The notes under the pieces were generated by a model. The model worked only from the letters and a program-made list of their open reading frames with translations, ran no database searches and was not told where the DNA came from. DNA of 41,785 bases from the NCBI GenBank assembly GCA_903822375.1, contig CAIJOU010000953.1, positions 1 to 41,785 on the forward strand, given 5' to 3'. The position numbers and the translations under genes were made by a program. The stretch is from Candidatus Hydrogenedentota bacterium (GTDB taxonomy: Bacteria; Hydrogenedentota; Hydrogenedentia; Hydrogenedentales; CAITNO01). Below, piece by piece: positions 19,721-37,070 of this stretch; position 1 is the first letter of the stretch, and each line of letters starts with the position of its first letter.

Positions 19721-20235
19721 GATGCGCTCCTCCTCATGTTGGGGTTGTGTCGTCGGTCCGAGTGTCCCAAACGACCTGAGAAGAGCATAGCAGGTGGCGG
19801 CGGGGTGTGTGAAGCGAAGCATAACGTCCCGGCGCCGGGCGCAGCGGGAACTGAAACGGTCTCCTCCAGGCCCGCGCCGGCGGACCCGGCTGCGGGCCCC
19901 GGCGGCCATGGTTCGCGCCGAATTTGTTTCCGCGCGTGCAGCCGTTCGCACAGGCTTCTTTCCTGGGACCATAATGGAGGTCCCTGTCAGCAAGGCGAAT
20001 ACGGCCGTGTTCTGCGCGGGGTTGGCATTTGCCGACCTCCGGGCTGAGGTGGGACGAAACATTGGAACCGGAACGCCCTGCACGTCGAATTTGCGGTGGA
20101 AAAGAGGCCGGATGGGCGGAGGTGAATGCGGACAGTTGCTTGGAGTAATATAAGGTCTGAGATGCGCCTCTTCCGGCGTCACAATGGTCTTGGGAACAGT
20201 TGGAGTCTATTTCAAAACAAAAGGTAGGCAGATCC

Positions 20236-23200
20236 ATGAAAATGTATCTCTATGTTCTCGGTGTTCTAGTGCTTGCGGCCGTTTTGGGGATTGGCAGCGG
20301 CTGCCAGCCGGGCGAACCGGTGCCCGTGCCGGATCTGGTCGGCCACACCCAGGTGGATGCGGTCTTGGCGCTCGACGCCGCGGGACTCGTTCTGGGGACG
20401 GTGACCGAGCAATACAGTGAGAATGTTGCCGAAGGGTTGGTGATTAGCCAAATGCCTGCATTCGGAAATTTCCTGGTGCCGGGCGAGGCTGTGGATCTGG
20501 TGCTTTCCAAGGGTCTCCATCCCATGGTTGTGCCCGATGTTGTCGGGCAAACCCAACTCTCTGCAACCCTCGCGATTATTCACGCTCATCTGATTGTGGG
20601 AGAGGTGACCAGGCAGTACGATGCCACGGTTCCATCAGGAAGTGTGGTCAGTCAGAATCCCGCGGCGGGCGCGTCATTGGAAGCCGGCATGGGAGTGGAT
20701 TTGGTTTTGTCCAGGGGGCCGCAGCCCGTGACCGTGCCGAATGTGGTGGGCATGACCCAGGCAGCGGCGGATTCAGCGATAGTCGCCGCCGGTCTTGTTG
20801 CGGGTGCGGTGACCAATCAGTACAGCGCCACAATCCCCGCGGGCGAGGTCATCGACCAGACGCCGGCGGCGGGCGCGATCGTGCCTGGGGGTACTGTGGT
20901 GGCCCTCGTTGTTTCCAAGGGCCCGCAGCCTGTGACCGTGCCGAATGTGGTGGGCATGACCCAGGCGGCGGCGGGCACGGCAATAACCGGCGCGGGACTC
21001 ACCGCGGGTGCGGTGACCCAGCAGTACAGCGGCACCGTTCCCTCAGGCAGTGTCATCAGCCAGACACCGGTGGCGGGCGCAAGCGCGCTTCCCGGCACCG
21101 CGGTGGACCTCGTTGTTTCCAAGGGTCCCCAACCCGTGACCGTGCCGGATGTTGTGGGCATGACCCAGTCAGCGGCGGGAACGGCGATAGTCGGTGCGGC
21201 CCTCTACGTGGGTGAGGTGACCCAGCAGTACAGCGCCACCGTCCCCTCAGGCCAGGTTGTCAGCCAGACACCGGCGGCGGGCACGGTCGTGCTTCCGGGA
21301 ACCATGGTGGACCTCGTTGTTTCCAAGGGCCCCCAACCTGTAACGGTTCCGGGCGTGGTGGGCGTGACCCAGGCGGCCGCGAGTACGGCGATAATCAATG
21401 CGGGGCTTACGGTGGGCGCCGTGACCCAGCAGTACAGCGCCACGGTTCCTGCCGGCAATGTCATCAGTCAGGCACCGTTGGCGGGCGCGAGCGCGCTTCC
21501 GGGCACTGCGGTGGCCCTGGTTGTTTCCAGGGGTCCGCAGCCTGTGACGGTTCCGAACGTGGTCGGCATGACCCAGGCGGCGGCGGGCACGGCGTTAACC
21601 GGTGCGGGACTTGCGGTGGGCGCCGTGACCCAGCAGTACAGCGCCACGGTTACTTCGGGTAATGTCATCAGTCAGGCACCGTTGGCGGGCGCGAGCGCGC
21701 TTCCGGGCGCTGCGGTGGCCCTCGTTGTTTCCATGGGCCCGCAGCCTGTGACGGTTCCGAACGTGGTCGGCATGACCCAGGCGGCGGCGGGCACGGCCAT
21801 AACCAGTGCGGGACTCACGGTGGGTGCCGTGACCCAGCAGTACAGCGCTTCGGTCCCCACCGGGAAAGTCATCAGTCAGGTACCGTTGGCGGGCGAGAGC
21901 GCGCTTCCGGGCGCTGCGGTGGCCCTCGTTGTTTCCAAGGGTCCGCAGCCGGTGACGGTTCCGGACGTGGTGGGCGTGACCCAGGCAACGGCCGGTACGA
22001 TGATAACCACCGCGGGACTTGTGGTGGGTGCGGTGACGGAGCAATACAGCGCCACGGTCCTGTCGGGCAGAGTGATCAGCCAGAACCCGCTTTCGGGCGC
22101 AAGCGTCCTTCCGGGCACCGCGGTGGCCCTTGTTGTTTCCAAGGGCCCGCAGCCCGTTACCGTGCCGAATGTGGTCGGCATGACCCAGGCGGCGGCGGGC
22201 ACCGCGATAGCCAACGCGACACTTGCGTTGGGTGCGGTGACGGAGCAGTACAGCGCCACCGTCGCCGCCGGCAATGTCATCAGTCAGGACCCGATTTCGG
22301 GTACAAGCGTGCTTCCGCACACTGCGGTGGCCCTCGTTGTTTCCAAGGGCCCGCAGCCCGTTGCCGTGCCGGACGTGGTCGGCATGACCCAGGCGGCGGC
22401 GGGTACGGCGATAACCAATGCGGGACTTGTGGTCGGTTCGGTGACCGAGCAGTACAGCGCCACGGTTGCCTCGGGCAATGTTATCAGTCAGTCGCCGCTT
22501 GCGGGCGAGAGCGCGCTTCCGGGCGCTGCGGTGGACTTGGTTGTTTCCAAGGGCCCGCAGCCCGTGTCCGTGCCGGACGTGGTCGGCACGCCGCAGGCAA
22601 CCGCCGAAGCCACAATCGTCGGCGCAAGCCTCGCGGTGGGCGTGGTGACCACGCAGTATAGCGACACCGTTGCCTCGGGCAATGTCATCAGCCAGTCGCC
22701 GCTTGCGGGCGCGAGTGAGCTTCCGGGCACCCCGGTGGACTTGGTTGTGTCCCTTGGAATCAGACCCGTGCCGGACGTGGTCGGTCTGCCGCAGGCGACT
22801 GCCGAAGCCGCAATCACCGGCGCCAACTTCACAGTGGGTGCGGTGAGCACGCATTACAGCAGCACCGTTGCCGCGGGCAATGTCATCAGTCAGTTCCCGC
22901 TTGCGGGCGCGTTTGAGGTTTCGGGCACCCCGGTGGACTTGGTCGTGTCCCTCGGGCAGGCACCCGTTCCGAACGTGGTCGGCATGACGCAGGCGGCCGC
23001 CGAAGCGGCAATTGTCGCCGCCGACTATACGGTGGGTGTGGTGACAAAGGACTACAGCGCCACCGTTCCCGCTGGCAATGTCATCAGCCAGAACCCGGTT
23101 GCGGACACGCCTGTGCCGCCGGGCGCCCCGGTGGACCTGGTCATATCCCTTGGCCCGCATCCCGTGACCGTGCCGGACGTGGTGGGCATGGCCCAGGCGG

Positions 23201-26200
23201 CCGCCGGAAGCGCAATCACCGGCGCGGGGCTCACAGTGGGCTCGGTGAGCACCGAGTATAGTGTGACAGTCCCCGCGGGCGATGTCATCAGCCAGTCCCC
23301 GCTTGCGGGCGACAGTGTCCTGCCGGGCACCCCGGTGGACTTGGTCGTGTCCCTCGGACACCCACTCGTTCCGGATGTCGTCGGCCTGTCTCAGGCGGCC
23401 GCCGAGACGGCCATCTTGGCCGCCGACTTCACCGTGGGTGCGGTGACAGACCAGTACAGCACCACCGTCCCCGCGGGCAGCGTCGTCAGCCAGTCCCCGC
23501 TTGCGGGTGCCAGCGCCACTTCCGGCACCCCGGTGGACTTGGTAATATCTCTTGGTCCTGAGCCCGTGACCGTGCCGGACGTGGTGGGCATGGCCCAGGC
23601 AGCCGCCGGAAGCGCAATCACCGGTGCTGGACTTGTGGTGGGCGTTGTGACCCTGCAGTACAGCGACACGGTTGCGGCGGGCGATGTCATCAGTCAAAAC
23701 CCGCTTGCAGGGGAGACAGCGCTTACAGGCTCCGCAGTGGACCTCGTTGTCTCCAACGGCCCGCAGCCCGTGCTTGTGCCGAACGTGGTGGGCATGACCC
23801 AGGCGGATGCCGAGGTTGCGATCATCGCCGCGGGGCTCGCCACGGGTACGGCAACCCAAGCGTTCAGCGCCACCGTCCCGGTGGGCGATGTCGTCAGCCA
23901 GTCCCCGCTTGCGGGAACAGGCGTCCTTCCGGGCTCCGCAGTCGACTTGGTTGTGTCCAAGGGGCCGCAGATGGTGACCGTTCCAATTCTGGTGGGTCTG
24001 ACCATCAATGATGCGATTGTGGCGATATTAACCGCAGGGCTCACCACGGGTGCGGTGACGCAGGTGTACAGCGAAACTGTTCCCGCGGGCTATGTAATCA
24101 GCCAAAGCCCGCTTGCAGGCGCAAGTGTGCCGCTGGGCTCTGCGGTGGATGGGGTTCTCTCCCTGGGGCCGCAGCCGCGCGTGACCGTGCCGGATGTGGT
24201 CGGCACGCTGCAGGCCACCGCCGAAAGCACCATCACCGGCGCGGGGCTTACGGTGGGCACGGTGACCACGCAGTACAGCCCCACGATCGCCGCAGGCAAT
24301 GTCATCAGCCAGTCTCCGCTTGCGGGTGCCAGCGTCCTGTCGGGCGCTCCGGTGGACTTGGTAGTGTCCCTTGGGCCTGCGCCCGTGCCGGACGTGGTGG
24401 GTCTGCCTCAGGCCACCGCCGAAGCCGCAATCGTCGCTGCCGACTACACGGTGGGCTCGGTGACCCTGGAGTATAACCTCACCGTTCCCACGGGCAACGT
24501 CATCAGTCAATCCCCGCTTGCGGGCGTGATCGAGCTTCCAGGCACTCCGGTGGATTTGGTGGTGTCCCTTGGGCCCAAACCCGTGGTCGTGCCGGACGTG
24601 GTGGGTACCCCGCAGGCAGCCGCAGAAGCCGCCATCATCGGCGAGGGCCTTACGGTGGGCACGGTGACCCAGGAGTACCACGCCACAGTCCCGGCAGGCA
24701 ATGTTATTAGCCAGTCGCCGGTTGGGGGTACAACCGCCCTGTCGGGCGATCCGGTGGCCTTGGTCGTGTCCCTTGGGCATGCGCCCGTGCCGGACGTGGT
24801 CGGTATGACGCAGGCGGCCGCCGAAGCCGCAATCGTCGCTGCCGACTATACGGTGGGTACGGTGACCACGGCGTACAGCGCCAGCGTCCCTGTTGGCGAT
24901 GTCATCAGCCAGAACCCGGTTGCGAACACGCCCGTGCCGCCGGCTACTCCGGTGGCCCTGGTAGTCTCCCTGGGTCCCCAGCCTGTTCCCGTGCCGGATG
25001 TGGTGGGCGAGCCGAAGGATTTCGCCGAAGCCACAATCGTCACCGCGGGGCTCACCGTGGGCACGGAGACTGGGCAGTATAGTGACACGGTCGATGTAGA
25101 TACTGTCATCAGCCAGAATCCGGTAGCTCTCACGCTTGTACTGCCGGGCTCCCCGGTGGACTTGGTCGTGTCTCTCGGACCCCTGACGGTGCCGAACTTG
25201 TTCAATCTGCCTCTGGCGGACGCCACGACCGCGCTCACCGACCTCGGTTACGTGGTGGGCGTGGTGACTGACGCGTACAGCCCCACCATCCCCGTCGGCA
25301 ACGTCATCAGCCAGGACCCGCTTGCGGGGTGGATCGAACCGGTGGGTACCTCGGTGGACTTGGTACTGTCCAAGGGGCCTGAGCCCGTGCCCGTGCCGAA
25401 TGTGGTCGGCCTGCCGCAGGCAGGCGCCGAAAGCCTTATTACCGGCGCCGGACTTGTGAGAGGTACGGTCACCACGCAGTACAGTGACACCATTCCTTCG
25501 GGCAGTGTCATCAGCCAGGCCCCGCTCGCGGGCATCATTGTTATGCCGGGCACCCCGGTGGACTTTGTCGTGTCCCTTGGGTTCGTGCCCGTGCCGGACG
25601 TTGTCAGCCTCCCGCAGGCAACTGCCGAAAGCACAATCGTCGCCGCCGGCTACACGGTGGGCAACGTGAGCACGCAGTACAGCAGCACTGTTCCGGCGGG
25701 CACTGTTATCGGCCAGAATCCGCTTGCGGGCACGCCCTTGCCGCCGGGCACACCGGTGGACCTGACCGTATCCCTTGGACCTCAGCCCATACCCGTGCCG
25801 GACGTGGTCGGAATGCTGCAGGCAACCGCCGAATCCACCATACTCAGCGAGGGATTCACGGAGGGCGTGGTCACGGAGCAGTACAGCGCCACCGTCGTGG
25901 CGGGCAATGTGATCAGCCAGAACCCGCTTGCGGGAGCGCTTGAGCTTCCGGGCACTGTGGTCGCCTTGGTCGTGTCCAAAGGGCCCGAGCCCGTGACCGT
26001 TCCGGATGTGGTGGGCCTGCCGGAGGCAGGCGCCGAAGGCGTAATTACCGCTGCGGGGCTCACGGTGGGAATTGTGACCGATGACTACAGCATCACGGTC
26101 CCCTTGGGCGACGTGATCAGCCAATCCCCGTCTGCGGGCAACAGTGTGCTGCCAGGCGTCTCAGTGGACTTGATTGTGTCCAAGGGGCCGGAATTGGTGA

Positions 26201-26805
26201 GTGTTCCGGACTTGACGGGCCTGTCCAGTGCTGACGCGTATTCGACACTACTCGCCGCACGGCTTGCCTTGGGTGTGGTGACGCAGGGATACAGCGACAC
26301 GGTTCCCGTGGGTTTCGTGATTAGCCAAAGCCCGTTTGCTGGCGCGCTTGTGCTGGTCGGCACCGCGGTGGACGGCGTTCTATCCCTGGGACCTGAGCCC
26401 ACCGTGCCGGACGTGGTCAATATGCTGCAGGTGGATGCGGAAAACGCAATTACCGGAGCGGGACTTACGGTGGGTACGGAAAGCGAGGACTATAGCGACA
26501 CAGTCCCCGCGGGCCAGGTCATCAGTCAGGACCCGCTTGCCGGAGACAGGGTCCCGCCGGACACGCCGGTGAACCTCGTTGTGTCCATGGGGCCCGAGCC
26601 CGTGACCGTGCCGGACGTGGTCGGCATGCAGCAGGCGGATGCGGAAAACGCGATTATCGGAGCGGGACTCAATGTGGGTACCGAAAGTTCGGAGAATAAC
26701 GACACAGTCCCCGCGGGCGAGGTCATCAGCCAAGACCCAGTAGGTGGCGACAGTGTTCCGCCGGGCTCGCCGGTGAACATCGTTGTGTCCTTGGGGTCCG
26801 TGTAG
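20236..26805 (+). CDS. Giant envelope protein: signal/lipobox-like N-terminus followed by 32 tandem PASTA domains, with no other domain
   Basis: ATG 20236 gives MKMYLYVLGVLVLAAVLGIGSGC. The remaining 2,159 aa tile exactly into 32 units of 65-69 aa, each with the PASTA pattern VPxVVGxxxxxAxxxIxxAGLxxGxVTxxYSxTVxxGxVISQxPxAGxxxxxGxxVxLVVSxG. Confidence 0.92.
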   Translation: MKMYLYVLGVLVLAAVLGIGSGCQPGEPVPVPDLVGHTQVDAVLALDAAGLVLGTVTEQYSENVAEGLVISQMPAFGNFLVPGEAVDLVLSKGLHPMVVPDVVGQTQLSATLAIIHAHLIVGEVTRQYDATVPSGSVVSQNPAAGASLEAGMGVDLVLSRGPQPVTVPNVVGMTQAAADSAIVAAGLVAGAVTNQYSATIPAGEVIDQTPAAGAIVPGGTVVALVVSKGPQPVTVPNVVGMTQAAAGTAITGAGLTAGAVTQQYSGTVPSGSVISQTPVAGASALPGTAVDLVVSKGPQPVTVPDVVGMTQSAAGTAIVGAALYVGEVTQQYSATVPSGQVVSQTPAAGTVVLPGTMVDLVVSKGPQPVTVPGVVGVTQAAASTAIINAGLTVGAVTQQYSATVPAGNVISQAPLAGASALPGTAVALVVSRGPQPVTVPNVVGMTQAAAGTALTGAGLAVGAVTQQYSATVTSGNVISQAPLAGASALPGAAVALVVSMGPQPVTVPNVVGMTQAAAGTAITSAGLTVGAVTQQYSASVPTGKVISQVPLAGESALPGAAVALVVSKGPQPVTVPDVVGVTQATAGTMITTAGLVVGAVTEQYSATVLSGRVISQNPLSGASVLPGTAVALVVSKGPQPVTVPNVVGMTQAAAGTAIANATLALGAVTEQYSATVAAGNVISQDPISGTSVLPHTAVALVVSKGPQPVAVPDVVGMTQAAAGTAITNAGLVVGSVTEQYSATVASGNVISQSPLAGESALPGAAVDLVVSKGPQPVSVPDVVGTPQATAEATIVGASLAVGVVTTQYSDTVASGNVISQSPLAGASELPGTPVDLVVSLGIRPVPDVVGLPQATAEAAITGANFTVGAVSTHYSSTVAAGNVISQFPLAGAFEVSGTPVDLVVSLGQAPVPNVVGMTQAAAEAAIVAADYTVGVVTKDYSATVPAGNVISQNPVADTPVPPGAPVDLVISLGPHPVTVPDVVGMAQAAAGSAITGAGLTVGSVSTEYSVTVPAGDVISQSPLAGDSVLPGTPVDLVVSLGHPLVPDVVGLSQAAAETAILAADFTVGAVTDQYSTTVPAGSVVSQSPLAGASATSGTPVDLVISLGPEPVTVPDVVGMAQAAAGSAITGAGLVVGVVTLQYSDTVAAGDVISQNPLAGETALTGSAVDLVVSNGPQPVLVPNVVGMTQADAEVAIIAAGLATGTATQAFSATVPVGDVVSQSPLAGTGVLPGSAVDLVVSKGPQMVTVPILVGLTINDAIVAILTAGLTTGAVTQVYSETVPAGYVISQSPLAGASVPLGSAVDGVLSLGPQPRVTVPDVVGTLQATAESTITGAGLTVGTVTTQYSPTIAAGNVISQSPLAGASVLSGAPVDLVVSLGPAPVPDVVGLPQATAEAAIVAADYTVGSVTLEYNLTVPTGNVISQSPLAGVIELPGTPVDLVVSLGPKPVVVPDVVGTPQAAAEAAIIGEGLTVGTVTQEYHATVPAGNVISQSPVGGTTALSGDPVALVVSLGHAPVPDVVGMTQAAAEAAIVAADYTVGTVTTAYSASVPVGDVISQNPVANTPVPPATPVALVVSLGPQPVPVPDVVGEPKDFAEATIVTAGLTVGTETGQYSDTVDVDTVISQNPVALTLVLPGSPVDLVVSLGPLTVPNLFNLPLADATTALTDLGYVVGVVTDAYSPTIPVGNVISQDPLAGWIEPVGTSVDLVLSKGPEPVPVPNVVGLPQAGAESLITGAGLVRGTVTTQYSDTIPSGSVISQAPLAGIIVMPGTPVDFVVSLGFVPVPDVVSLPQATAESTIVAAGYTVGNVSTQYSSTVPAGTVIGQNPLAGTPLPPGTPVDLTVSLGPQPIPVPDVVGMLQATAESTILSEGFTEGVVTEQYSATVVAGNVISQNPLAGALELPGTVVALVVSKGPEPVTVPDVVGLPEAGAEGVITAAGLTVGIVTDDYSITVPLGDVISQSPSAGNSVLPGVSVDLIVSKGPELVSVPDLTGLSSADAYSTLLAARLALGVVTQGYSDTVPVGFVISQSPFAGALVLVGTAVDGVLSLGPEPTVPDVVNMLQVDAENAITGAGLTVGTESEDYSDTVPAGQVISQDPLAGDRVPPDTPVNLVVSMGPEPVTVPDVVGMQQADAENAIIGAGLNVGTESSENNDTVPAGEVISQDPVGGDSVPPGSPVNIVVSLGSV
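20326..26802 (+). repeat. In-frame coding tandem repeat array, 32 units of 195-207 bp (one PASTA domain each)
   Basis: Units 1-11 (20326-22569) have an exact 204-bp period; for example GTTTCCAAGGG recurs every 204 bp from 20911 to 22543. Later units are mostly 198 or 204 bp, with 207-, 201- and 195-bp exceptions. The summed unit lengths (2,159 aa) account for every residue after the signal peptide. Confidence 0.95.
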
Positions 26806-26951: not shown

Positions 26952-28700
26952 TCAGTCTGTGACAGGCATCTCGTGGGTTACCCATTTGACCGCTTCGGGT
27001 GCATGACGGCGCTCACGGCCAACCTTGAGCGCCCGTTCGAGATTCAGCATGTGGACATTCTTGTCACAATGGGTGGCGGGCTCATAGGTCCAGCCCTTTG
27101 CCAGACGTTTGGCCTCGCGCTGCGTCGTGAAATGGACGAAGCGGCCGAGCAGGGGCGCCAGAACGCGCGTCTTCCAGCCGAATTCGGTGTACAGTGCCTG
27201 AAGGACGCCGTTGGCCTTTGCGTACATGGCGGGATCACTTCGGTACCACTGGCGCATGGCCCACACGGCGGCCGCATAGGTGTCGCCCAGACTTTTCGCC
27301 TCGCGCAGGAAGCGCTCGCGGATGCGCGCGTCTTCATGGTTCTTGTAGCGCTCCAAGCCTTCCAGCGTCACCCGGAACAGCCTCAGCAGGCTCGGCCCGT
27401 TGACTTCAAAATCGCGCTGGAACGCACGTAACAGAAACGCTGTTTCCCCTCCGGCGGGGATGTGGGCGTGGCGGTGCTTGAAACGGTACTGGCCGTGGGT
27501 GTCGGCGGGCGCCAGTTCCTGATCGGACAGAAGGGTGCCGTCCGCCTTATGCTGCCGGTGAAGCGGCGTGCCGGGAATCGGTGTGTAGAGCATGAACTGG
27601 TGGAATACCGTGTCGTGGCTCACGGCCCAGCTGATGACGTCCTCCATGTCCTCCGGGCGGTGCTCTTCCAGGCCGATAATCGTGGAACCGAGCACGCGCA
27701 TGCCGTGTTTCTCCAGCGAGCGGACCAGTTCGTGGGTGTCCACGCCGGATAGTTTCCCGTACTGGCTGTCACGGCCCTCAAGCCCCATCCAAACCCACGA
27801 GATGCCCAGTCCGACAAGCTGTTCCATGGTGTAGGACTTGAGCACGCGGGCGGAGCTGAACACGCTCAACGCCCAGCTCTTGCCGCGCTCGCGCATCAGT
27901 TCGAGCAGGCGCAGCGCCCGCTCCCGGTGGAACAGGAAGTTCTCGTCCATGACGAAGAACGACTGGGTCTGCAGTTCCCTTTCCAGCCGGTCCATCACCT
28001 CGAAGAGCGCATCGCCCGTTTCATAGAAATTGACACAATGCCCTTTTCCGCCAAACATGGCGGAGGTGGAGCAAAAATTGCAGCCCATGGGGCAGCCGAC
28101 CGAGGGAATGAGGATGGCCGCCGTGTCGCCCGTCCTTTCGGGGGACGTGATGCCAAAACTTCGCGCGCCAAACGCCGACAGGACTGCCGGATGGCGGACT
28201 GGGGCTTCGGTGTCCTGCCCAAGAAACTCCCGGAACCAGCGGATGCCGTCGCCCTTCACAACGTGGTCCGCGGCAAGGCGGTCCTCAATATTCTCCACAT
28301 TGGCGACATGGCCGCCGACCACAATGGTGGCGCAGGGCTGATACTGCCGCACCAGCGCGCACATCCGCTCCACCTTGCCGATGTTGGGCATGATTCCGCT
28401 GATGCCCACGACGTCATAGGTTTTGTCGCGAAGTTCCTCGATGAACCGGTCCTGCGTGGGGAAATCCAGCACCGTGCAGGGGCACTCGAGGTTGGCCTGA
28501 ATCATTAACAGACCGAACGAGCGGTGAAACATGCGAAGCGAGAAGGGGCCCTGAACCCGCGTGACCTGGTTGTGATACAGCTCCATCGGGTTGATGGCGC
28601 GGCTGCCGTACTCGTCGTCCTGCGCATAGGGGCCAAAGACACTGCACAACAGGACGCGGGCCTTGGTGCCGAGGGAATGTGTGGGATGGGTGGTTGTCAT
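26952..28700 (-). CDS. B12-binding-domain-containing (class B) radical SAM enzyme with a long helical C-terminal extension
   Basis: B12-binding-like Rossmann part (YDVVGISGIMPNIGKVERMCALVRQYQPCATIVVGGHVA...VVKGDG). Radical SAM cluster motif SVGCPMGCNFCS (CxxxCxxC). An Arg/Leu-rich C-terminal region of about 200 aa contains a single Cys, so no SPASM/twitch cluster. Start is taken at ATG 28700 (MTTTHPTH...); ATG 28790 or TTG 28823 are alternatives. Confidence 0.85.
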   Translation of the reverse strand: MTTTHPTHSLGTKARVLLCSVFGPYAQDDEYGSRAINPMELYHNQVTRVQGPFSLRMFHRSFGLLMIQANLECPCTVLDFPTQDRFIEELRDKTYDVVGISGIMPNIGKVERMCALVRQYQPCATIVVGGHVANVENIEDRLAADHVVKGDGIRWFREFLGQDTEAPVRHPAVLSAFGARSFGITSPERTGDTAAILIPSVGCPMGCNFCSTSAMFGGKGHCVNFYETGDALFEVMDRLERELQTQSFFVMDENFLFHRERALRLLELMRERGKSWALSVFSSARVLKSYTMEQLVGLGISWVWMGLEGRDSQYGKLSGVDTHELVRSLEKHGMRVLGSTIIGLEEHRPEDMEDVISWAVSHDTVFHQFMLYTPIPGTPLHRQHKADGTLLSDQELAPADTHGQYRFKHRHAHIPAGGETAFLLRAFQRDFEVNGPSLLRLFRVTLEGLERYKNHEDARIRERFLREAKSLGDTYAAAVWAMRQWYRSDPAMYAKANGVLQALYTEFGWKTRVLAPLLGRFVHFTTQREAKRLAKGWTYEPATHCDKNVHMLNLERALKVGRERRHAPEAVKWVTHEMPVTD

Positions 28701-28894
28701 GGGGTCATGGACCCTTTCTGCCGCCGCGGCAGGTACTGTGATTAGGCTTGAAACAGGTTTATGTGCGGTGATTTGAGTGTTTGTTTGCATTGGGGAAGCG
28801 GAGGCATGCGCCGGATCCGGCAAGTGCCCTGAACTTGGATGTTCTATAGGACGCGTTATCCTTTACCGATGGTCTGGATACCGGTTTAAAGATG

Positions 28895-28910
28895 GACTGA
28901 CTGGTCAGTC
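28895..28910. promoter_or_regulatory. Perfect 7-2-7 palindrome GACTGAC-TG-GTCAGTC in the divergent control region (candidate operator)
   Basis: Located in the locally AT-richer gap between the radical SAM gene (start 28700) and the ABC ATPase gene (start 29010), about 100 bp upstream of the latter. Confidence 0.3.
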
Positions 28911-29009
28911 ATTTAATTGTACCGCAGCGCGCGGTGGAATGCAACCCCAACGGGGTGCACAAGTGTAAAGGGTGTGGAAAACTGCATACCGGACCCGTCG
29001 CGTGGTAAA

Positions 29010-29918
29010 ATGGCGCGCATGGATTCATGCATCGTCATGGAGAACGTCACCAAGCGGTACGGGCGCACGGTGGCGGTGGGGGATCTCTCCCTTGAAGTCC
29101 GTCGGGGCGAGGTGCTGGGACTGCTCGGGCCAAACGGTGCCGGCAAGAGCACAACCATCGGCATGCTCAGCGGTTTGATCCGCCCCAGTTCGGGCCGCAT
29201 TTCCGTGTTCGGCCTCGACCTTGTCCGCAACCGCATCGACATCGCCCGCCGCATGGGCGTGCTGGTCGAACGTCCCGCCTTTCCTGAATATCTTTCCGTG
29301 CGGCGCGTGCTCAAGATCCACACGCTGCTGGCCGGCTCGAACGCCTCGGTGGAGTCGGTCATGGCGCGCACCGGGCTGACCCATGTTGCCCGCAGGCATG
29401 TGGGCGCGCTGTCTCAGGGCATGCGCCAGCGTCTCGGCATCGCCCAGGCCATCCTCACCGAGCCCGAACTGCTGGTGCTCGACGAGCCCACCTCGGGACT
29501 GGACGTGGAGGGCACGCGGGACACGCTGCGCTTTCTGCGCCGCCTGTGCAACGAGGCGGGGGTGACCATTGTGTTCTCCAGCCACCAGATGCAGGAAGTG
29601 GAGGCGTTGTGCGACCGCGTGGCCATTCTCAACGAGGGCGGACTGGTTGCCTGCGAGGAAAAGGAAACACTGCTTTCCTGGGACCTGAGTGAAGTGGACC
29701 TTCTGGTGGACCGTCCGGACGAGGCCGCCGTCCAGCTTGCCGGACTCGGCTGGGTCGTCTCGGTGGATGTGAGACCGGGCGGCCTTCATGTTCATTTGGA
29801 GGGCCCCAAGTCCGACGAACTGACGGCCTGGCTGATCGGAAGGGGTTTCCGGGTTTCCGGTGTGGTGCCGCACCGGCGCACGCTTGAGGACTACTTCCTG
29901 AGGGTCACCGAACCATGA
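29010..29918 (+). CDS. ABC transporter ATP-binding protein (ABC-2/DrrA-CcmA-like exporter type)
   Basis: Walker A GPNGAGKST, Q-loop, signature LSQGMRQRL, Walker B LLVLDEPTSGLD, H-loop SSHQM. C-terminal domain of about 90 aa. The start is ambiguous (ATG 29010, 29019 or 29037) and there is no clear SD. Confidence 0.9.
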   Translation: MARMDSCIVMENVTKRYGRTVAVGDLSLEVRRGEVLGLLGPNGAGKSTTIGMLSGLIRPSSGRISVFGLDLVRNRIDIARRMGVLVERPAFPEYLSVRRVLKIHTLLAGSNASVESVMARTGLTHVARRHVGALSQGMRQRLGIAQAILTEPELLVLDEPTSGLDVEGTRDTLRFLRRLCNEAGVTIVFSSHQMQEVEALCDRVAILNEGGLVACEEKETLLSWDLSEVDLLVDRPDEAAVQLAGLGWVVSVDVRPGGLHVHLEGPKSDELTAWLIGRGFRVSGVVPHRRTLEDYFLRVTEP

Positions 29919-30706
29919 TCGCGCGGGTCCTGCGGGCATATATGGCCGAGTTGATCAAGGGATTCCGGCTCCGGCAGGCGTGGGCGGGCCCCCTGGTGCT
30001 GATGGTCGTGCTGGCCGCCGCGCCGATTATGCGCCCCATCGCGCACGACGGCCGCAGCGATTACGATTTCATTGCCCTTGTCACCCCGGCCACACTCAAC
30101 CTGCTCGGTTTTCTGCTGCTGCTGTCGGGGTGCGCGAGCCTTGTGGCTCCGGAGATTGGCGGGGGCTCCATAAGGCTGTTCCTGGTCCGCCCCATTCGGC
30201 GCAGCGAGTATCTGCTCGCAAAGTTCATGGCCGGGGCAAGCTATGCCGCGCTGCTGACGGGGATTACCGCCGCGGGCTCCTGGAGCATGGCCTGGGCGAT
30301 GGGCGAGTTGCATGGGGTGGCCTTCGGCGGCGAACTGGTTTACACGAACGAGTCCATGGCCGAAGCCTATCTGGTCGGTGCCGCGCTCAGCCTGTTTCCC
30401 ATGCTCGCCGGGGTGGCCTGCGCGCTGCTCGCTTCGGTCTGCGCCCGCAGTTCAGGCACGGCCGTGACCGTGTCTGTGGGCCTTTGGCTGTGCGTGGACA
30501 TGATCAAGCATCCGCTCGGCATTGATGCCTATGTGTTCACCACCTACCTGGAGGCACCCTGGCAGGTGTTTGTGAACCGCTGCGACGGCCTTGACGCGGC
30601 ATGGTGGCCCATGGCCGGATGGTGCGCCGGCGTGTCGATCTGCACAGCCATTCCGGCCTTTGCACTGGCGGTGCTCGTGCTCCACCGAAGGAATTTCTCC
30701 GCATGA
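29915..30706 (+). CDS. ABC-2 family transporter permease
   Basis: 263 aa with about six hydrophobic helices. Begins with an ATGA overlap on the ATPase stop. N-terminus MIARVLRAYMAELIKGFRLRQAW is typical of NosY/ABC2_membrane-type permeases. Confidence 0.8.
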   Translation: MIARVLRAYMAELIKGFRLRQAWAGPLVLMVVLAAAPIMRPIAHDGRSDYDFIALVTPATLNLLGFLLLLSGCASLVAPEIGGGSIRLFLVRPIRRSEYLLAKFMAGASYAALLTGITAAGSWSMAWAMGELHGVAFGGELVYTNESMAEAYLVGAALSLFPMLAGVACALLASVCARSSGTAVTVSVGLWLCVDMIKHPLGIDAYVFTTYLEAPWQVFVNRCDGLDAAWWPMAGWCAGVSICTAIPAFALAVLVLHRRNFSA

Positions 30707-32187
30707 CCGCCCTCGTGGTTGCCTGCCTTGCGGCGGGGGCAATCACCTTCCAGCCGCAGGAGATGCCGGGCTTGAACGCGGGCCCGATTCTGTCTTTCAC
30801 CGTGCAGCCGTCCGTGAACTACCGTCAGGCGGACATGGACGGCGACGGTCTGGCCGACCTCGTGTTCGACAACGCCCTGTGGCTGCAGCAGGCCGGCCTG
30901 TTTCCCCCGGAACGCCGCCAACTCCTGCCCAAGGAGGCCGTCCGGGCGCTCATGGATGTGGACAACGGGCGGCTCTACTGCATACGTGATGGAAGACTGG
31001 TTGTTTTGCGCTGGCAGGACGGGGCGCTTGCGGCGGAAGTGGACCAGAAACTGGACTGGCCCGCCGATGAGAACGGGTCCAGCGCCGGCCTGGGCCGGTT
31101 TCTCCACGATCTGGACGGAGACCACCAGCCTGAACTCGTCGCCGTGGACGAGCACGGGGTCACGGTCTTTGCCAAGCGTGAAACGGGTTACGTGCAGGCG
31201 GCCCGGATGACCGGCATCCTGCCGGAACTGCGCTATCTTCAGGTTCCGCAGCAGCCTGTATGGCCCAAATCGCGGCGGGCGCTGGCTTTCCCGGCCCGGC
31301 AGGTGGCCTGCGATCTTCTTGTGGACGGACCGTCCCTCTCCATACTCTTTCGCGACCCGGTCCAGGCGGGGCAGTACGTGTTTCAACGGGAGACCCGAAT
31401 GCTCTCCGTCAAGGACGGTGAATATCAGGGGGGCGTGCCGGTGACAGTGCGCAGCGCGCCCGTTCCGGAGCATGTGCGCCCCTGTCGACTCAACGGGGAC
31501 GACATTCCCGACCTCGCCGGCTGCAAACGCGTTGATTCAACGGGCCGCACCGTTCCGGTTTCCATGGTGGAAACATGGGCCAGTCTCGATGACGGCAAAA
31601 CCTTTGACGTGCGCCGCGCCCCCGCAATGGACCGGTTCCTGCCGCAGGTTCCCTTTGTCGATTTCGACGGCGACGGACTGGTGGACATGGTCACCGAATC
31701 CACCAGTCTCTTCGAGGGTGGCACCCGGGAACTGGTGGAGCGCTTCATGACCCGCGCCTCCATCGGCCACACGGTGCGCGTCTATCCGCAGCAGCCCGGC
31801 GGGTTCGCACAAACACCCGCCGTCGAGTTTCAGGTGGAAATCACGCTCGAAGCGCCCCCGTGGCGCGTGCCCCCCATGTATGGCCGGTATCAGGCAGGCA
31901 CGCTCGTGAATGTTTCCGGCGATTTTGACGGTGACGGTCATCGCGACATCGCTGTGCGCGACCATGCCGACCGGGTGGGGGTGTGGCTGGCGCACGGGGG
32001 AACCTTCTTCGCCGCGCCCGATGCCGTGGTGCGCATCGACCCCGCCTCCGAATATGCGGTGGCGGATGTCAACGGCGACGGACGGTCGGATATTATCGAG
32101 ACCTGCGGGGCGGCGTCATCCTCCGCCAGGCCGGGGCGAACGGTGGTGGTCCATTTCGCCGTTTCCGGAAAGGGGGGCACTCCATGA
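30703..32187 (+). CDS. FG-GAP/VCBS-repeat (beta-propeller) protein with a hydrophobic N-terminus
   Basis: ATG 30703 overlaps the permease stop (ATGA). Hydrophobic N-terminus MTALVVACLAAGAI. Repeated Ca-binding-like DxDGDG motifs: DMDGDGLADLV, DLDGDHQPELVAVD, LNGDDIPDL, DFDGDGLVDMV, DFDGDGHRDIAV, DVNGDGRSDII. Confidence 0.8.
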   Translation: MTALVVACLAAGAITFQPQEMPGLNAGPILSFTVQPSVNYRQADMDGDGLADLVFDNALWLQQAGLFPPERRQLLPKEAVRALMDVDNGRLYCIRDGRLVVLRWQDGALAAEVDQKLDWPADENGSSAGLGRFLHDLDGDHQPELVAVDEHGVTVFAKRETGYVQAARMTGILPELRYLQVPQQPVWPKSRRALAFPARQVACDLLVDGPSLSILFRDPVQAGQYVFQRETRMLSVKDGEYQGGVPVTVRSAPVPEHVRPCRLNGDDIPDLAGCKRVDSTGRTVPVSMVETWASLDDGKTFDVRRAPAMDRFLPQVPFVDFDGDGLVDMVTESTSLFEGGTRELVERFMTRASIGHTVRVYPQQPGGFAQTPAVEFQVEITLEAPPWRVPPMYGRYQAGTLVNVSGDFDGDGHRDIAVRDHADRVGVWLAHGGTFFAAPDAVVRIDPASEYAVADVNGDGRSDIIETCGAASSSARPGRTVVVHFAVSGKGGTP

Positions 32188-33587
32188 CCTCCCTGATCTT
32201 TGCCGCATGCGGCTTCTGTTGCGGGGCGCTGTTCTCCCTGCAGACCATACCGGTGGAGCAGCCCGACGCCCAGTGTTTTTTTGCCGAAGCGGACGGCCGG
32301 GGTGGCGGCGACCTGGTGGTCATCGACGGTCGTCAGCTGACCGTGCATGTCGGCGCGGAGACGGGGGGGAAGCTCTCGATTCTGCTGGATCCCGAAAGCT
32401 CCGCCCTGGACATTGCGGACATCGACGGCGACGGCCAGCCGGATCTCGTCGTCGTTGCCGGAGACAGGGTGCTCAAGTACAGTCTGGAACCCACGGCCTC
32501 CCGCGATCCGCAGGTCCTGTTCTCCACGCACAGCCAATTGTCGGCCGCAGCGCCCCGGCCGTTTCCCCATGTGCTGGTGCTTGCACGCGGGGGGCGTCCG
32601 CTCATCGCACTGCCCACCGCGGAAAAGCTGGAACTGCGCGCGCCTTCGGGCGAGTTGGTCGAAAGTCATCCCATCGGCTTGGACGCGGCACACCGCGTCA
32701 GCTTCGGACAGCCCTTCAGTGCGCTTCCCGTTCAGCCCCCGCGCCTGGGCTTGCCCACCGCGCTGGAGTTGCGCGTCATCCAAACCGCCGCATTTGTGCC
32801 CGACCTGCCCGAGGGGCTTGCCCCCTTGGACTCCGGTGTCGCGCAGCAGTTTTCGGGCAGTGTCGCGCAGGCGGCCGTGGCGGCGCGCAAAGACCCGCCC
32901 GAATCCTGGCCGTGGTTCCGCCTGCACCCCTCGGGGGCGCAGGATGACGAGCGCGTGTTCTATGCGTATGACCCCGATGGGGCGCGGGAAACGCTGGTGC
33001 GCGTGCGCCGCGCGCTTCCGCCGGTGGCGGGACGGGGCCGCGAACTCAAGCTTTCTGGTGTCCAGCGCTATCCGGGCATGGCGGTTCCCTGCGCCACAAC
33101 CGTGCCCGATTTCAACGGAGACGGCTATGCCGACCTGCTGTTATGGAACGCCGCCGCCCCGGTGCCCACGGTGGGCGCCATAAGCCGGGCACTGACGGAG
33201 GGATACTGGTCCGTCCGGCTCACCGTGCATTTGTTCGACCCCGCTTCGGGCCGCTATTCCCCCGTTCCCTTTGCGGTCATCCCGTTGCAGGTGCCCGTGG
33301 CCTGGTTTCTGGCCGACCCGGGCAGCCCGCCCGTACGCCATCTGGTTCTGGACGAATTCAACGGCAATGACCGCACCGACCTGCTCTGCGCCACCGCGCC
33401 CGACAAACTGGCCGTCTGGGTGTCCGTTCCCTCGGGCATCCGGCCCGACCCCCTCCAGGTAATACAATTCCCCGGACCCGTCCAGCGGGTCGAACTGCGC
33501 GGTGATCTTGACGGCGAGGGAAGAATTAGTCTTGTGCTCAGCGGCCCGAAGACTTTCTACATTCTCCGCGCCCGCAAGGGCGGGTGA
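32184..33587 (+). CDS. Second FG-GAP/VCBS-repeat-like protein with a hydrophobic N-terminus
   Basis: ATG 32184 overlaps the preceding stop (ATGA). N-terminus MTSLIFAACGFCCGALFSL. Motifs DIDGDGQPDLVVVAGD, DFNGDGYADLLLWN, DEFNGNDRTDLLC, GDLDGEGRISLVL. Confidence 0.75.
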   Translation: MTSLIFAACGFCCGALFSLQTIPVEQPDAQCFFAEADGRGGGDLVVIDGRQLTVHVGAETGGKLSILLDPESSALDIADIDGDGQPDLVVVAGDRVLKYSLEPTASRDPQVLFSTHSQLSAAAPRPFPHVLVLARGGRPLIALPTAEKLELRAPSGELVESHPIGLDAAHRVSFGQPFSALPVQPPRLGLPTALELRVIQTAAFVPDLPEGLAPLDSGVAQQFSGSVAQAAVAARKDPPESWPWFRLHPSGAQDDERVFYAYDPDGARETLVRVRRALPPVAGRGRELKLSGVQRYPGMAVPCATTVPDFNGDGYADLLLWNAAAPVPTVGAISRALTEGYWSVRLTVHLFDPASGRYSPVPFAVIPLQVPVAWFLADPGSPPVRHLVLDEFNGNDRTDLLCATAPDKLAVWVSVPSGIRPDPLQVIQFPGPVQRVELRGDLDGEGRISLVLSGPKTFYILRARKGG

Positions 33588-33715
33588 TCCGCCGTCTCCC
33601 GTACCCTCCTCCTGTCCCAAAGAGCCCGTTCACTCCTCGTTTTTTTATGGAGAAACAACAGACAGCCGGACGGGCCCCGACGTTCGGACAGGCCCGTTCG
33701 ATGGAGGAGCGAACG

Positions 33716-34387
33716 ATGGAAGATGTGACAACAAACAAGAAGACCAGATGGTTTACAGCGCTGGTGCTGGCGATGATAGTGGGAATGGCGGCACAAACCG
33801 CCGCCATAGCGTACTTGGCCCTCAGGCACGGCGGCGGAACGCCCCCGTCGGTGACTGAGGCCGCCGCGACCAGTCCCGGCGGATGGCATTTGATGAACCC
33901 GCCAGCCCCCGCCAAGCCGGGCGGCACCGCGCAGGTGCAGGCGGACCCAATGACTCCGTTCAGCCCCGGACAGTGGGACCCCTTCCAGGAAATGCGCCAA
34001 ATGCAGGACCGCATGGACGCGATGTTCAACAACGCATTTGGGCGCATGGGGGCGAGTCCCCAGTTCAGTCCGCTGATGAACGGTTTCGCCGCGACGCCCA
34101 CCATGGACATGACCGAGAACGACAACGAGTACCAGATGCGTGTGGACCTTCCCGGGGCGGATGAGTCGAAGATAGACGTATCCCTCGAAGGGCAGCAGTT
34201 GACCATCCGCGCGGAGCGGAACGGCGAGGTCTCTTCCGGAAAGGCACCCGGCACCATGCTGCGCACGGAGCGTCACATGGGCCGGTATGAACGCACCATG
34301 ACCCTGCCCAAACCGGTGGTGGATGGCAGCATGAAGACCCATTACGACAAGGGCGTGCTGACCATCACGGTGCAGAAGAAGAAATAG
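33716..34387 (+). CDS. Small heat-shock protein (Hsp20/alpha-crystallin family) with an N-terminal transmembrane anchor
   Basis: ATG 33716 has GGAGGAG 6 nt upstream; in-frame ATGs at 33647 and 33701 are alternatives. N-terminus MEDVTTNKKTRWFTALVLAMIVGMAAQTAAIAYLAL is a basic stretch plus a TM helix. A Pro/Ala-rich linker follows, then WDPFQEMRQMQDRMDAMF and the alpha-crystallin domain (MDMTENDNEYQMRVDLPGADESKIDVSLEGQQLTIRAER...GRYERTMTLP...DKGVLTITVQK). Confidence 0.85.
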   Translation: MEDVTTNKKTRWFTALVLAMIVGMAAQTAAIAYLALRHGGGTPPSVTEAAATSPGGWHLMNPPAPAKPGGTAQVQADPMTPFSPGQWDPFQEMRQMQDRMDAMFNNAFGRMGASPQFSPLMNGFAATPTMDMTENDNEYQMRVDLPGADESKIDVSLEGQQLTIRAERNGEVSSGKAPGTMLRTERHMGRYERTMTLPKPVVDGSMKTHYDKGVLTITVQKKK

Positions 34388-34459: not shown

Positions 34460-36049
34460 TTACCTTCGCTGCTGCGGTTGCGCGATGGCCAGCCGACGCT
34501 CGGTCCACCGCGCGAGCCGCACGAAGGGAAGGCCGATCAGCAGGTACATGGCGGCCACCAGGATGCCGGTGCCGAAGTAGTCGTAATAGGTCGTCGCAAG
34601 CATGCTGTAGGTCTTGGTCAGTTCGACCATCGTGATCACGGAGACCAGCGACGAATCCTTCAACAGAGAGATGAAATCGTTGGTCACCGGCGGCAGCACC
34701 ACGCGAAACGCCTGCGGTGCGATGACATGCCGGATCGCCTGACCCCGCGTCATGGCAAGGCCCAGTGCCGCCTCCATCTGCGAGTGGGGCACGGCTAGGA
34801 ATCCGGCGCGGTAGTTCTCCGCCTCGTAGGCCGCGTAGTTGAGACCCAGCCCCACAACGCCCGCCCAGAACGGCGAAAAGCGTATGCCAAGAGCGGGAAG
34901 GCCGTAGAAGATGAAGAACAGCTGAATCAGCACGGGTGTGCCGCGGACGACCTCAATGTAGACAGTGGCCAGGATGCCGAGCGGAAAAGGGGCGTACACG
35001 CGGAGGGTGGCAAGGAGGAAGCCAAGCGCCACGGCCAGCAGCATGGCCAGAATGGACACTTCCAGCGTCAGCAGGGCACCCTTGCCGAGGAGCGGCAGAA
35101 AGCCGATGTAGCGTTTCACCCGTTGTTCCAAACCCGACTTGGGCTGGATGTGCTTTACCCATTCGTCGTACATGACGGGTTCGGTGGCGGAGGCGCCGAA
35201 ATCCTGAAACTCGTTGGCTGTGGCTTGGTTCCAGAGATTCCAGCGCTCGAGGATTCTGCGCAGCTCGCCGTTTTGGCGCATCTTCATCAGGACCGCGTTG
35301 ACCTGGTCCAGAAGTTCCTTCTTTTCCTTCGAGAAGGCAAAGCCGTAGGCGATGCGGCTGATCTCCGGCTTGATGAACTTGACCTCGGGCCGCGGTCCGC
35401 CGTAGTACAGCGCGACCGGTGCGTCAAACAGCACGGCGTCGAGCCGTCCGTTGATCAGGTCGTCAAATCCGTTCACCTCGGTCGGATAGGCGCGGATGTC
35501 CGCAACGCCCAGTAAATTCAGCAGGTGAAAGGCACTCGATTCCTTGAGCGTGCCCACCACTTTGCCCCTGCAGTCCGCAACGGTGTTAATCAGAAACTCG
35601 TTTTTGCGCACGCACAACTGGAGGCCCGTGACGCAGTACGGCACGGAGAACAGCACGGCCTCTTCGTGCTCGGGCGTAATCTCCTGGCCCTCGGTGGCCA
35701 TGTCATAGAGATCCCTCGAAAGGCCGGGAATCAGCTTGTCCCAGTCGTTCTGAACCATTACGGGCTTTCGGCCGATTTCCTGGGCAATTGCCTCGATCAC
35801 CTCCACTTCAAAGCCGATCAAACGGCCCGGGCTGCGCCAGTCTTCGAACATGTACGGGAGCCCACCTTCAAGGTCTGTGCCGTAGCGCAGCGTCCCCGCT
35901 TCCGCGGGGGCCGGGTTTGCTTTCGTGGGCTCTTCATTGTGACGTTGGGCGTCCCGGCCCTGCGCCCTTGCGGGGACTGGTCCTGCGCAGCAAGCCAGGA
36001 CAAGCAGGGAAACCAACATCGCTGGTCGGTGGGCGAATGTGTTGGTCAT
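34460..36049 (-). CDS. Amino-acid ABC transporter, fused periplasmic substrate-binding domain + permease
   Basis: Signal/anchor MLVSLLVLACCAGPVPARA. SBP family 3-like region (LRYGTDLEGGLPYMF...GFEVEVIEAIAQEIGRKPVMVQNDWDKLIPGL). His/Glu/Gln/Arg/opine-type permease region (IEVVRGTPVLIQLFFIFYGLP...). ATGA overlap with the upstream ATPase gene. Confidence 0.9.
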   Translation of the reverse strand: MTNTFAHRPAMLVSLLVLACCAGPVPARAQGRDAQRHNEEPTKANPAPAEAGTLRYGTDLEGGLPYMFEDWRSPGRLIGFEVEVIEAIAQEIGRKPVMVQNDWDKLIPGLSRDLYDMATEGQEITPEHEEAVLFSVPYCVTGLQLCVRKNEFLINTVADCRGKVVGTLKESSAFHLLNLLGVADIRAYPTEVNGFDDLINGRLDAVLFDAPVALYYGGPRPEVKFIKPEISRIAYGFAFSKEKKELLDQVNAVLMKMRQNGELRRILERWNLWNQATANEFQDFGASATEPVMYDEWVKHIQPKSGLEQRVKRYIGFLPLLGKGALLTLEVSILAMLLAVALGFLLATLRVYAPFPLGILATVYIEVVRGTPVLIQLFFIFYGLPALGIRFSPFWAGVVGLGLNYAAYEAENYRAGFLAVPHSQMEAALGLAMTRGQAIRHVIAPQAFRVVLPPVTNDFISLLKDSSLVSVITMVELTKTYSMLATTYYDYFGTGILVAAMYLLIGLPFVRLARWTERRLAIAQPQQRR

Positions 36050-36843
36050 TGGATGTCGCGCCCCACGTATTGGCCCAAAAAGCGCCGTGTCCGCTCGTCC
36101 CTGGGTTTCATGAAGATTTCGTCTTCATCCGAAATCTCAACGATTTCGCCGTGTTCCATGTAGATGATGTAGTCCGAGGCGTTGCGCGCAAAGCGCATTT
36201 CGTGCGTCACGATGACCTGGGTCATCCCGTCCCGGTCAAGGCCGCGCATCACCTCCAGCACCTCGTCGACCAGTTCCGGATCAAGCGCCGAGGTGGGTTC
36301 GTCGTAAAGCATCACCCTGGGGTTCATGGCCAGTGCGCGCGCAATGGCGGCGCGCTGCTGCTGCCCGCCGGACAGGTGGTGGGGGTAACGGTCCCTGTGC
36401 TTGAGGAGGCCGACCTTTTCAAGCAGGTGCAGGGCGTTGTCTCTTGCGGCCTCGCGCGTCTCCCTCTTCACGATCATCGGCGCCAGCATGATGTTTTCCT
36501 GGATGGTCTTGTGCGGAAACAGGTTCAGTGACTGGAAGACCATGCCCACCTCGCTGCGCAACCTGTGGGCCCGTTCGTGGAAGGCGTGATTGGTGTGCTC
36601 GCGCCTGCTGGCGCGTTCCAGCGTCACCCCCGCCACGGCAATGCGTCCGGAGTCCAGCATCTCGAGACAGTTCAGACAGCGCAGCAGCGTGGACTTGCCG
36701 CAGCCCGAAGGCCCGATGATGGACACCAGGTCCCCCTCCGCGATGGTGAGGTTGATGTCCCTGAGGACGGGGGGGCCGTCATAGCTCTTGAACAGGTGCT
36801 CCACGGAAATCAGCGGAGCGGCCGGGGGGGCGGCTTCACGCAT
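36046..36843 (-). CDS. Amino-acid ABC transporter ATP-binding protein (GlnQ/HisP-like)
   Basis: ATG 36843 is preceded by AAGGAG. Walker A GPSGCGKST, signature LSGGQQQRAAIARAL, Walker B VMLYDEPTSALD, H-loop VTHEM. The 29 upstream codons in the track ORF are not needed. Confidence 0.93.
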   Translation of the reverse strand: MREAAPPAAPLISVEHLFKSYDGPPVLRDINLTIAEGDLVSIIGPSGCGKSTLLRCLNCLEMLDSGRIAVAGVTLERASRREHTNHAFHERAHRLRSEVGMVFQSLNLFPHKTIQENIMLAPMIVKRETREAARDNALHLLEKVGLLKHRDRYPHHLSGGQQQRAAIARALAMNPRVMLYDEPTSALDPELVDEVLEVMRGLDRDGMTQVIVTHEMRFARNASDYIIYMEHGEIVEISDEDEIFMKPRDERTRRFLGQYVGRDIQ

Positions 36844-37070
36844 GAGCCGGTCTCCTTTCGCGATGGGAAAATCCTTTCGGGGCCGCAACGAATCCTGCGA
36901 AAAGATACGCGGCCGCGCGACGGGTGTCAAGGATAATCACGCCTTCTCTCCGTTTCCGCCATGCTTCGTGTGGACCGGGCAAGCGCTTTTGGATGGTGGC
37001 CGCCGCAAGGCGGTCGGGAATGTTGCATGCGCGTATGCAATGCCGCCACAGGCAGGCGGCGGCTTGCCCG

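Follow-up and report, generated by a model that had tools for sequence, protein, structure and literature searches.

A four-gene ABC-2 cassette with two FG-GAP repeat proteins in Candidatus Hydrogenedentota

A translationally coupled four-gene operon

We analyzed a 41,785-nucleotide (nt) stretch of DNA from a Candidatus Hydrogenedentota bacterium (positions 1 to 41,785 of contig CAIJOU010000953.1, assembly GCA_903822375.1; hereafter the window), and here describe four adjacent genes on its forward strand that encode an ATP-binding cassette (ABC) module together with two FG-GAP repeat proteins. The first gene (29010..29918, +) encodes an ABC ATPase of 302 amino acids (aa) that matches Pfam ABC_tran with an E-value of 6e-31, and the second (29915..30706, +) encodes an ABC-2 (type V) permease of 263 aa that matches Pfam ABC2_membrane_2/_4. 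They are followed by the genes for FG-GAP protein 1 (FG1, 494 aa, 30703..32187, +) and FG-GAP protein 2 (FG2, 467 aa, 32184..33587, +). Both products scored above the FG-GAP_3 cut-off of 26.9 bits (FG1, 64.7 bits, E 1.2e-17; FG2, 40.7 bits, E 3.7e-10) and hence contain FG-GAP repeats. When realistic start codons are used, the stop codon of each gene overlaps the start codon of the next in an ATGA at all three junctions (ATPase/permease/FG1/FG2), which supports a single translationally coupled operon.

The operon is transcribed divergently from a gene for a B12-binding radical S-adenosylmethionine (SAM) enzyme (582 aa, 26952..28700, −). The 309-bp intergenic region between the two gene starts (28701..29009) is presumed to be the promoter region of the four genes. 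A scan for consensus promoters and terminators returned counts at chance level and nothing above it, an Rfam scan matched no family, and a tRNA scan found none. Downstream of FG2 and on the same strand lies a gene for an Hsp20 small heat-shock protein (33716..34387, +; PF00011, E 8.3e-17), whose likely start at 33716 is preceded by a GGAGG motif and leaves a gap of ~130 nt after FG2, while its maximal open reading frame (ORF) begins at 33584. The next gene (34460..36049, −) is convergent to Hsp20. The radical SAM and Hsp20 genes are judged to lie outside the functional unit, for reasons given below. All six ORFs that an earlier note on this DNA had described are present where it had placed them. 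Its boundaries for ATPase, FG1, FG2 and Hsp20 were those of maximal ORFs, however, and the real starts lie further in. The layout that it had drawn, with an operon for the ATPase, the permease and two FG-GAP proteins divergent from the radical SAM gene, then a membrane-anchored Hsp20 on the same strand and a convergent gene, is borne out.

Inheritance of the cassette and of its neighbors

The ATPase, permease, FG1 and FG2 genes recur in identical order in eight other independent contigs, and their flanks are different each time. These loci are the P0124 contig, L004, L005/6, L007, L083/84, L085, L086 and L087, of which L007 is from a Hydrogenedentota metagenome-assembled genome (MAG) and L087 lies on a 4.08-Mb contig. 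There too, the junctions between the cassette genes are mostly overlapping, and the typical sizes of the products are ~300 aa for the ATPase, 263–269 aa for the permease, ~490 aa for FG1 and ~465 aa for FG2. Identity of FG1 among the eight contigs ranges from 78% down to 28%, and tabulated tblastn comparisons revealed a parallel divergence of the four proteins (ATPase 87–51%, permease 83–42%, FG1 62–28%, FG2 73–27%). Since the four genes are co-inherited while their flanks change, we take the four-gene cassette to be the functional unit. ATPase, permease, FG1 and FG2 form a self-contained, translationally coupled operon that is inherited together.

So far, the operon has been found only in Candidatus Hydrogenedentota, to which all named cassette sources belong. 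FG1 has ~37 full-length relatives (32–81% identity), and the few named ones are from Candidatus Hydrogenedentes, as are the named ones among the 25 word-index relatives of the permease. An exhaustive HMMER search with the permease retrieved 75 representative clusters at E ≤ 1e-30. We also scanned genome contigs with a profile built from the FG1 alignment: L007 was the sole true cassette among the 76 loci returned, and the other 75 were set aside as unrelated FG-GAP proteins with no adjoining ABC-2 permease. The permease, FG1 and FG2 were recognized by no NCBIfam or PADLOC model, and Pfam assigned them generic domains only; the anti-phage models of PADLOC yielded generic matches at the level of ABC ATPases, and the five other proteins encoded by the six genes had no match. 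Literature searches that paired FG-GAP with either ABC-2 or Hydrogenedentes turned up nothing.

The earlier note had envisaged a larger and undescribed module of six genes, in which the radical SAM enzyme would make or modify a cargo, the ABC-2 pump would export it to the propellers, and Hsp20 would serve as an extracytoplasmic holdase. Adjacency in the window speaks for this arrangement, given the short divergent region on one side and the short same-strand gap on the other. By contrast, neither a radical SAM orthologue nor Hsp20 was found within 10 kb of any of the eight other cassette loci (tblastn; P0124 by gene table). In the two nearest syntenic relatives (P0124 and L004), the convergent amino-acid importer is kept downstream of FG2, directly after it in P0124 and behind an intervening sulfatase gene in L004, and Hsp20 is absent from the equivalent position. 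The four core genes thus co-occur as a dedicated module, as had been expected of all six, while the other two do not travel with them.

The radical SAM enzyme is of the class B type and lacks SPASM cysteines, in agreement with the earlier description. A B12-binding domain (PF02310, residues 67–156, E 2e-11) precedes a radical SAM core (PF04055, residues 198–358, E 9e-10) in which the CxxxCxxC motif reads CPMGCNFC, and the C-terminal ~200 aa contain a single Cys, hence no SPASM domain. More than 8000 homologues were retrieved at E ≤ 1e-5. The top 120 are 63–85% identical to the query and ~580 aa long, and come from Nitrospiraceae, Desulfobacteraceae, Desulfonema magnum, Acidobacteriota and others; identity across Nitrospirota, Desulfobacterota, Acidobacteriota and Hydrogenedentota is 63–70%. 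Such a large family, spanning phyla without the cassette, is difficult to reconcile with a six-gene module. So are the surroundings of its members: an 85%-identical orthologue adjoins a divergent PAS histidine kinase gene, an 82%-identical one on a 304-kb contig lies between the genes for a prepilin-type N_methyl/SBP_bac_10 protein and those for the nickel-pincer cofactor, and the Desulfonema magnum orthologue (63%) lies between a chemoreceptor gene and a metallo-β-lactamase-fold gene. None of these three neighborhoods contains an ABC-2 or FG-GAP gene. The radical SAM gene therefore stands alone, with no conserved neighbors, in four contexts, and in the absence of conserved co-located precursor or tailoring genes a role in making a ribosomally synthesized and post-translationally modified peptide finds no support, as the earlier note had already concluded.

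Nor did NCBIfam place the enzyme in a well-characterized family, such as the hopanoid or bacteriochlorophyll enzymes that had been considered before. No equivalog passed among the class B subfamilies tested (HpnJ, BchE, HpnR, PhpK, ladderane, Mmp10 and others), and all scores were far below the cut-offs, the best being HpnJ (47.6 bits, cut-off 577.6) and BchE (45.1 bits, cut-off 481); the ApyD and geopeptide maturase models also scored far below theirs. In the Protein Data Bank (PDB) library searched, which may lack Tes/GDGT-MAS entries, no relative was found at E < 0.1, and the sole radical SAM entry at E ≤ 1 was 9ccb (E 0.11). In locus L092/93 (described below), a related ABC-2 fusion has a different B12-radical SAM gene at a distance of 5.5 kb. 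This gene offers some support for the six-gene idea and was considered as its rescue; it is only 21.6% identical to the enzyme of the window, and is therefore not an orthologue of it.

Hsp20 carries one N-terminal hydrophobic helix of 24 residues, with KKTR ahead of it and a Pro/Ala/Gly-rich linker of ~90 aa behind it (read from the sequence). This combination of positive charges, a single transmembrane helix and a linker predicts that the α-crystallin domain lies outside the cytoplasmic membrane, in keeping with the anchored Hsp20 of the earlier note. Its proposed part as the holdase of the system did not survive, because it is missing from all eight other cassette loci. We judge that Hsp20 and the radical SAM gene are probably unrelated neighbors in this one genome. 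The comparison of neighborhoods has largely refuted the six-gene module, which we now consider very improbable, and the link between radical SAM, ABC-2 and small heat-shock genes is an accident of the gene order of one genome, leaving no basis for searching for a radical-SAM-made cargo. The radical SAM enzyme itself is judged to be a chance neighbor; its family stands alone, is very large and highly conserved and has no assigned function, and given such strong conservation it may merit separate study.

Several other genes of the window and of the related loci were noted. The convergent gene downstream of Hsp20 (34460..36049, −) encodes a 529-aa fusion of a periplasmic binding protein to a permease which, together with the product of 36046–36930 (−), makes up an amino-acid ABC importer; the importer (34460–36930) is 78–84% identical to its counterpart in the syntenic L004. 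Upstream of the radical SAM gene, 20200..26805 (+) encodes a giant predicted lipoprotein of 2201 aa (N-terminus MKMYLYVLGVLVLAAVLGIGSGC) with 32 tandem PASTA domains and without a kinase or penicillin-binding protein domain. A hybrid histidine kinase of 962 aa is encoded at 248–3136 (+); its PocR sensory domain is N-terminal, its receiver domain is C-terminal, and several PAS domains are also present. We also noted that a sulfatase gene directly adjoins the cassette in three of ten loci (L004:12896-14281, L083:6731-8215 and L091:3842-6481), and that glycoside hydrolases or glycosyltransferases are common near cassette loci; either may be due to chance. The same applies to a possible sulfatase connection of 4881–6206, a gene of the window 23 kb from the cassette that encodes a PKD-domain protein resembling formylglycine-generating enzyme.

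The ABC-2 module and its closest relatives

The ATPase consists of a nucleotide-binding domain and a conserved C-terminal domain of ~80 aa. Its motifs are intact: Walker A reads GPNGAGKST, the signature LSQGM and Walker B LLVLDEP with the catalytic Glu, and the His of the H-loop is present. The Gln of the Q-loop is replaced by Glu at residue ~86 (GVLVERP), a position that was confirmed by alignment to the nucleotide-binding domains of ABCA4. This replacement is shared by all eight cassette orthologues and also by the relatives in L091 and L092; a Gln-to-Glu exchange in the Q-loop is common in some ABC-2 ATPase subfamilies. The best matches in the PDB were nucleotide-binding domains of ABCA proteins, and the closest bacterial relative of solved structure was NosF (7o0y, E 1.8e-41). 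In NCBIfam, the best matches were DrrA, GldA, NodI and the ATPase of a pyrroloquinoline quinone (PQQ)-associated system, all of them below the cut-offs.

A sequence search of the PDB with the permease found no match. The AlphaFold2 model (pLDDT 88.8) has six long helices and a small β-hairpin in one loop, with no large external domain. Foldseek gave its best E-values for NosY chains (7znq, 7o0y and 7o12; E 1e-4, TM-scores 0.58–0.61), followed by PmtD, which had the highest TM-scores (0.67–0.71), ABCG25, CcmB and KpsM; ABCG2 was also among the matches. In addition, one permease orthologue carries a JGI label of COG1277, NosY-type. As modeled, the permease is a minimal type V ABC exporter subunit with a fold nearest that of NosY. 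Its family-specific loop motifs are conserved (RDG.SDY, a GV.FGG.L hairpin and PWQVF.NRCD), as is a nearly invariant Cys pair (C223/C237). Given the usual ABC-2 topology, with both termini inside, the loops that carry these motifs would face outward.

The comparison with NosDFY and GldAFG that the earlier note had drawn turned out to be apt: the permease model best matches NosY chains, and NosF is the best bacterial match of the ATPase. As in NosDFY(L) (7o0y, 7znq, 7qba), a NosF-like ATPase with a C-terminal domain and a minimal six-helix NosY-like permease are encoded in one operon with a large repeat-fold partner protein that is expected outside the membrane. The likeness to NosF and NosY holds at the level of fold and subfamily only, with 16–19% identity between the permease and NosY. 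The cassette differs in that the partner is a pair of paralogous FG-GAP propellers rather than the NosD β-helix, and its gene order is F-Y-partner-partner. No gene of the region matched a NosD or NosL family in Pfam or NCBIfam, and neither the window nor the eight related loci showed linkage to nosZ or nosR, NosL being absent there too. GldAFG of Bacteroidota gliding likewise combines an ABC-2 ATPase and a NosY/GldF-type permease with a dedicated large membrane-anchored accessory protein. However, the present operon has no GldG-like gene and occurs in another phylum with another accessory fold, and the GldA model TIGR03522, the third-best NCBIfam match of the ATPase, reached 175.1 bits where the cut-off is 402.6, far short of equivalog level.

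Another ABC-2 ATPase and permease that are encoded with a β-propeller protein belong to the TIGR03864 set, which we take to be a PQQ-dependent alcohol dehydrogenase-associated ABC-2 system with a YVTN β-propeller. TIGR03864 was among the top matches of the ATPase (161.5 bits, cut-off 302). The cassette differs from this system in that its propellers are FG-GAP rather than YVTN and two in number, and there is no PQQ dehydrogenase nearby. The cassette would thus work like NosDFY and GldAFG and be a member of neither, given that NosD, NosL, NosZ and GldG are absent and that equivalog scores fail. A NosFY-type ABC-2 module with two FG-GAP propellers appears to be an uncharacterized variation on a known type of transporter cassette. 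On balance, we lean slightly towards the view that this module has the two propellers as working partners on the outer side of the membrane.

A plain ABC-2 exporter of a lipid, amphipathic peptide, drug or glycoconjugate has to be weighed against this view. The propellers would then be co-transcribed without mechanical coupling and, at the surface or in the periplasm, would use or bind the exported molecule or merely share its regulation, with PmtCD, ABCG and ABCA as the comparison. The highest TM-scores of the permease model, to PmtD of the PmtCD phenol-soluble-modulin exporter, and the matches to ABCG25 and ABCG2 are what one would expect of such a pump, and so is the closeness of the ATPase to the nucleotide-binding domains of lipid-exporting ABCA proteins; sequence identity to these exporters is 12–16%, and, unlike the cassette, they have no co-encoded propellers. 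On the other hand, ATGA coupling of all four genes and their strict co-inheritance down to ~28% identity point to stoichiometric partners. The family-specific motifs in the permease loops that would face outward also argue for a dedicated partner rather than a plain exporter, as do the best E-values of the permease, which are to NosY, a protein with a periplasmic partner. We therefore regard a plain exporter as unlikely, and prefer an ABC-2 module that acts together with the propellers.

The FG-GAP proteins and a possible mechanism

FG1 begins with an uncharged hydrophobic N-terminus (residues 2–16) that leads into an all-β domain of FG-GAP repeats. It contains at least six DxDxDG-type loops, and Cys203 and Cys261 are nearly invariant in a 34-sequence alignment. 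The AlphaFold2 model of FG1 (pLDDT 86.7, pTM 0.85) is all-β with ~33 strands, and profile matches to the PDB were at the level of repeats only, the weak ones including ITFG2. Comparison of the FG1 and FG2 profiles by hhalign gave a probability of 99% (E 2e-18 over 314 columns), so the two proteins appear to be ancient paralogues that are homologous to each other. The hydrophobic N-termini reported before are present at both starts (~14–18 residues), and a segment of this kind is kept in every FG1 and FG2 orthologue. We place FG1 and FG2, provisionally, at the outer face of the cytoplasmic membrane.

More distant relatives of the permease bear on this placement. In P0387 (L091:1519-3798), a permease that scored only 91 bits with the family profile continues without a break into an FG-GAP protein of ~487 aa; two genes away, another FG-GAP protein (470 aa) is encoded. 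Both have canonical, positively charged Sec signal peptides (MLKVLLGFFVLLVLTLPLSAQ and MKLLWAAWILASLPGFSLLSAQ), which supports an extracytoplasmic location and extends the link between ABC-2 and FG-GAP proteins. The P0387 fusion may be genuine, and we use it as supporting evidence only. A second candidate fusion of the permease to FG1, P0277 (775 aa), was rejected: its sixth transmembrane helix is replaced by ~30 out-of-frame-looking residues ahead of the own Met of FG1, and the junction was therefore treated as a frameshift artefact.

Several observations weigh against a NosFY-type module with propeller partners at the outer face. The top Foldseek match of the FG1 model was the propeller of integrin α5 (E 8e-7), but with a TM-score of only ~0.33; at such low scores to integrin-type propellers, a closed propeller of seven blades would be a tentative assignment. 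The gene neighborhoods offer no clue to the substrate. L091 is a long-read contig of 3x coverage, and its ATPase gene is split by an evident frameshift. In L092/93, a closer relative of the permease than P0387 is part of a 600-aa ATPase-permease fusion (P0327) without an FG-GAP partner, as a plain exporter would have it; it is followed (L092:8001-16815) by two large polytopic membrane proteins, a GDSL lipase, the B12-radical SAM enzyme mentioned above and GT2, with a DUF2079 membrane protein upstream. Not every member of the wider permease clade thus has FG-GAP partners, and L092/93 could be a different ABC-2-centered envelope cluster. Lastly, the N-terminal segments of FG1 and FG2 are without Lys or Arg in any of ~42 orthologues. 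Being short (~14–17 residues) and uncharged, they are neither typical Sec signal peptides nor typical transmembrane anchors.

Such segments would make poor Sec substrates, and thereby favor another explanation, in which the propellers depend on the ABC-2 module for their biogenesis (membrane insertion, release or delivery to the surface) or in which they are regulators of the pump at its cytoplasmic face. Cytosolic FG-GAP propellers do exist, ITFG2, which gave weak matches, being an example. Yet the Cys pairs C203/C261 of FG1 and C223/C237 of the permease and the Ca-type DxDxDG loops fit an extracytoplasmic location, as do the canonical signal peptides of the L091 relatives, and we know of no type V ABC-2 transporter that translocates folded proteins of ~50 kDa. 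A role in propeller biogenesis or cytoplasmic regulation is thus quite unlikely in our estimate.

For the preferred reading, a NosFY-type module coupled to the propeller pair, the following mechanism can be sketched. The ATPase and permease would assemble in the usual way, with two nucleotide-binding and two transmembrane domains, from half-transporters. The short hydrophobic N-termini of FG1 and FG2 would hold the two proteins on the outer side of the cytoplasmic membrane or deliver them there, and the propellers would dock on the conserved, presumably outward-facing loops of the permease. Through ATP hydrolysis, the module might then pass on a substrate, hydrophobic or bound to the surface, from the membrane to the two propellers, or change the conformation of the pair itself. 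NosFY serves NosD in this way.

A more specific picture may be offered tentatively, as possible though not probable: a phylum-specific envelope machine in which a NosFY-like motor drives a heterodimer of Ca-binding FG-GAP propellers at the outer face. By analogy to LptC in LptB2FGC, the uncharged N-terminal helices might intercalate with the helices of the permease, and the machine could capture and hand over a glycan or lipid of the cell surface.

A theme now emerging is that ABC-2 (type V) modules can power a partner outside the cytoplasm, with NosDFY, GldAFG and LptB2FGC as examples, and few partner folds are known. If the proposed coupling is true, two paralogous FG-GAP propellers would add a fold to the known partners of mechanotransmitting ABC-2 systems. 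Hydrogenedentota is a phylum known mostly from MAGs, and the cassette would then also give a handle on the biology of its envelope.

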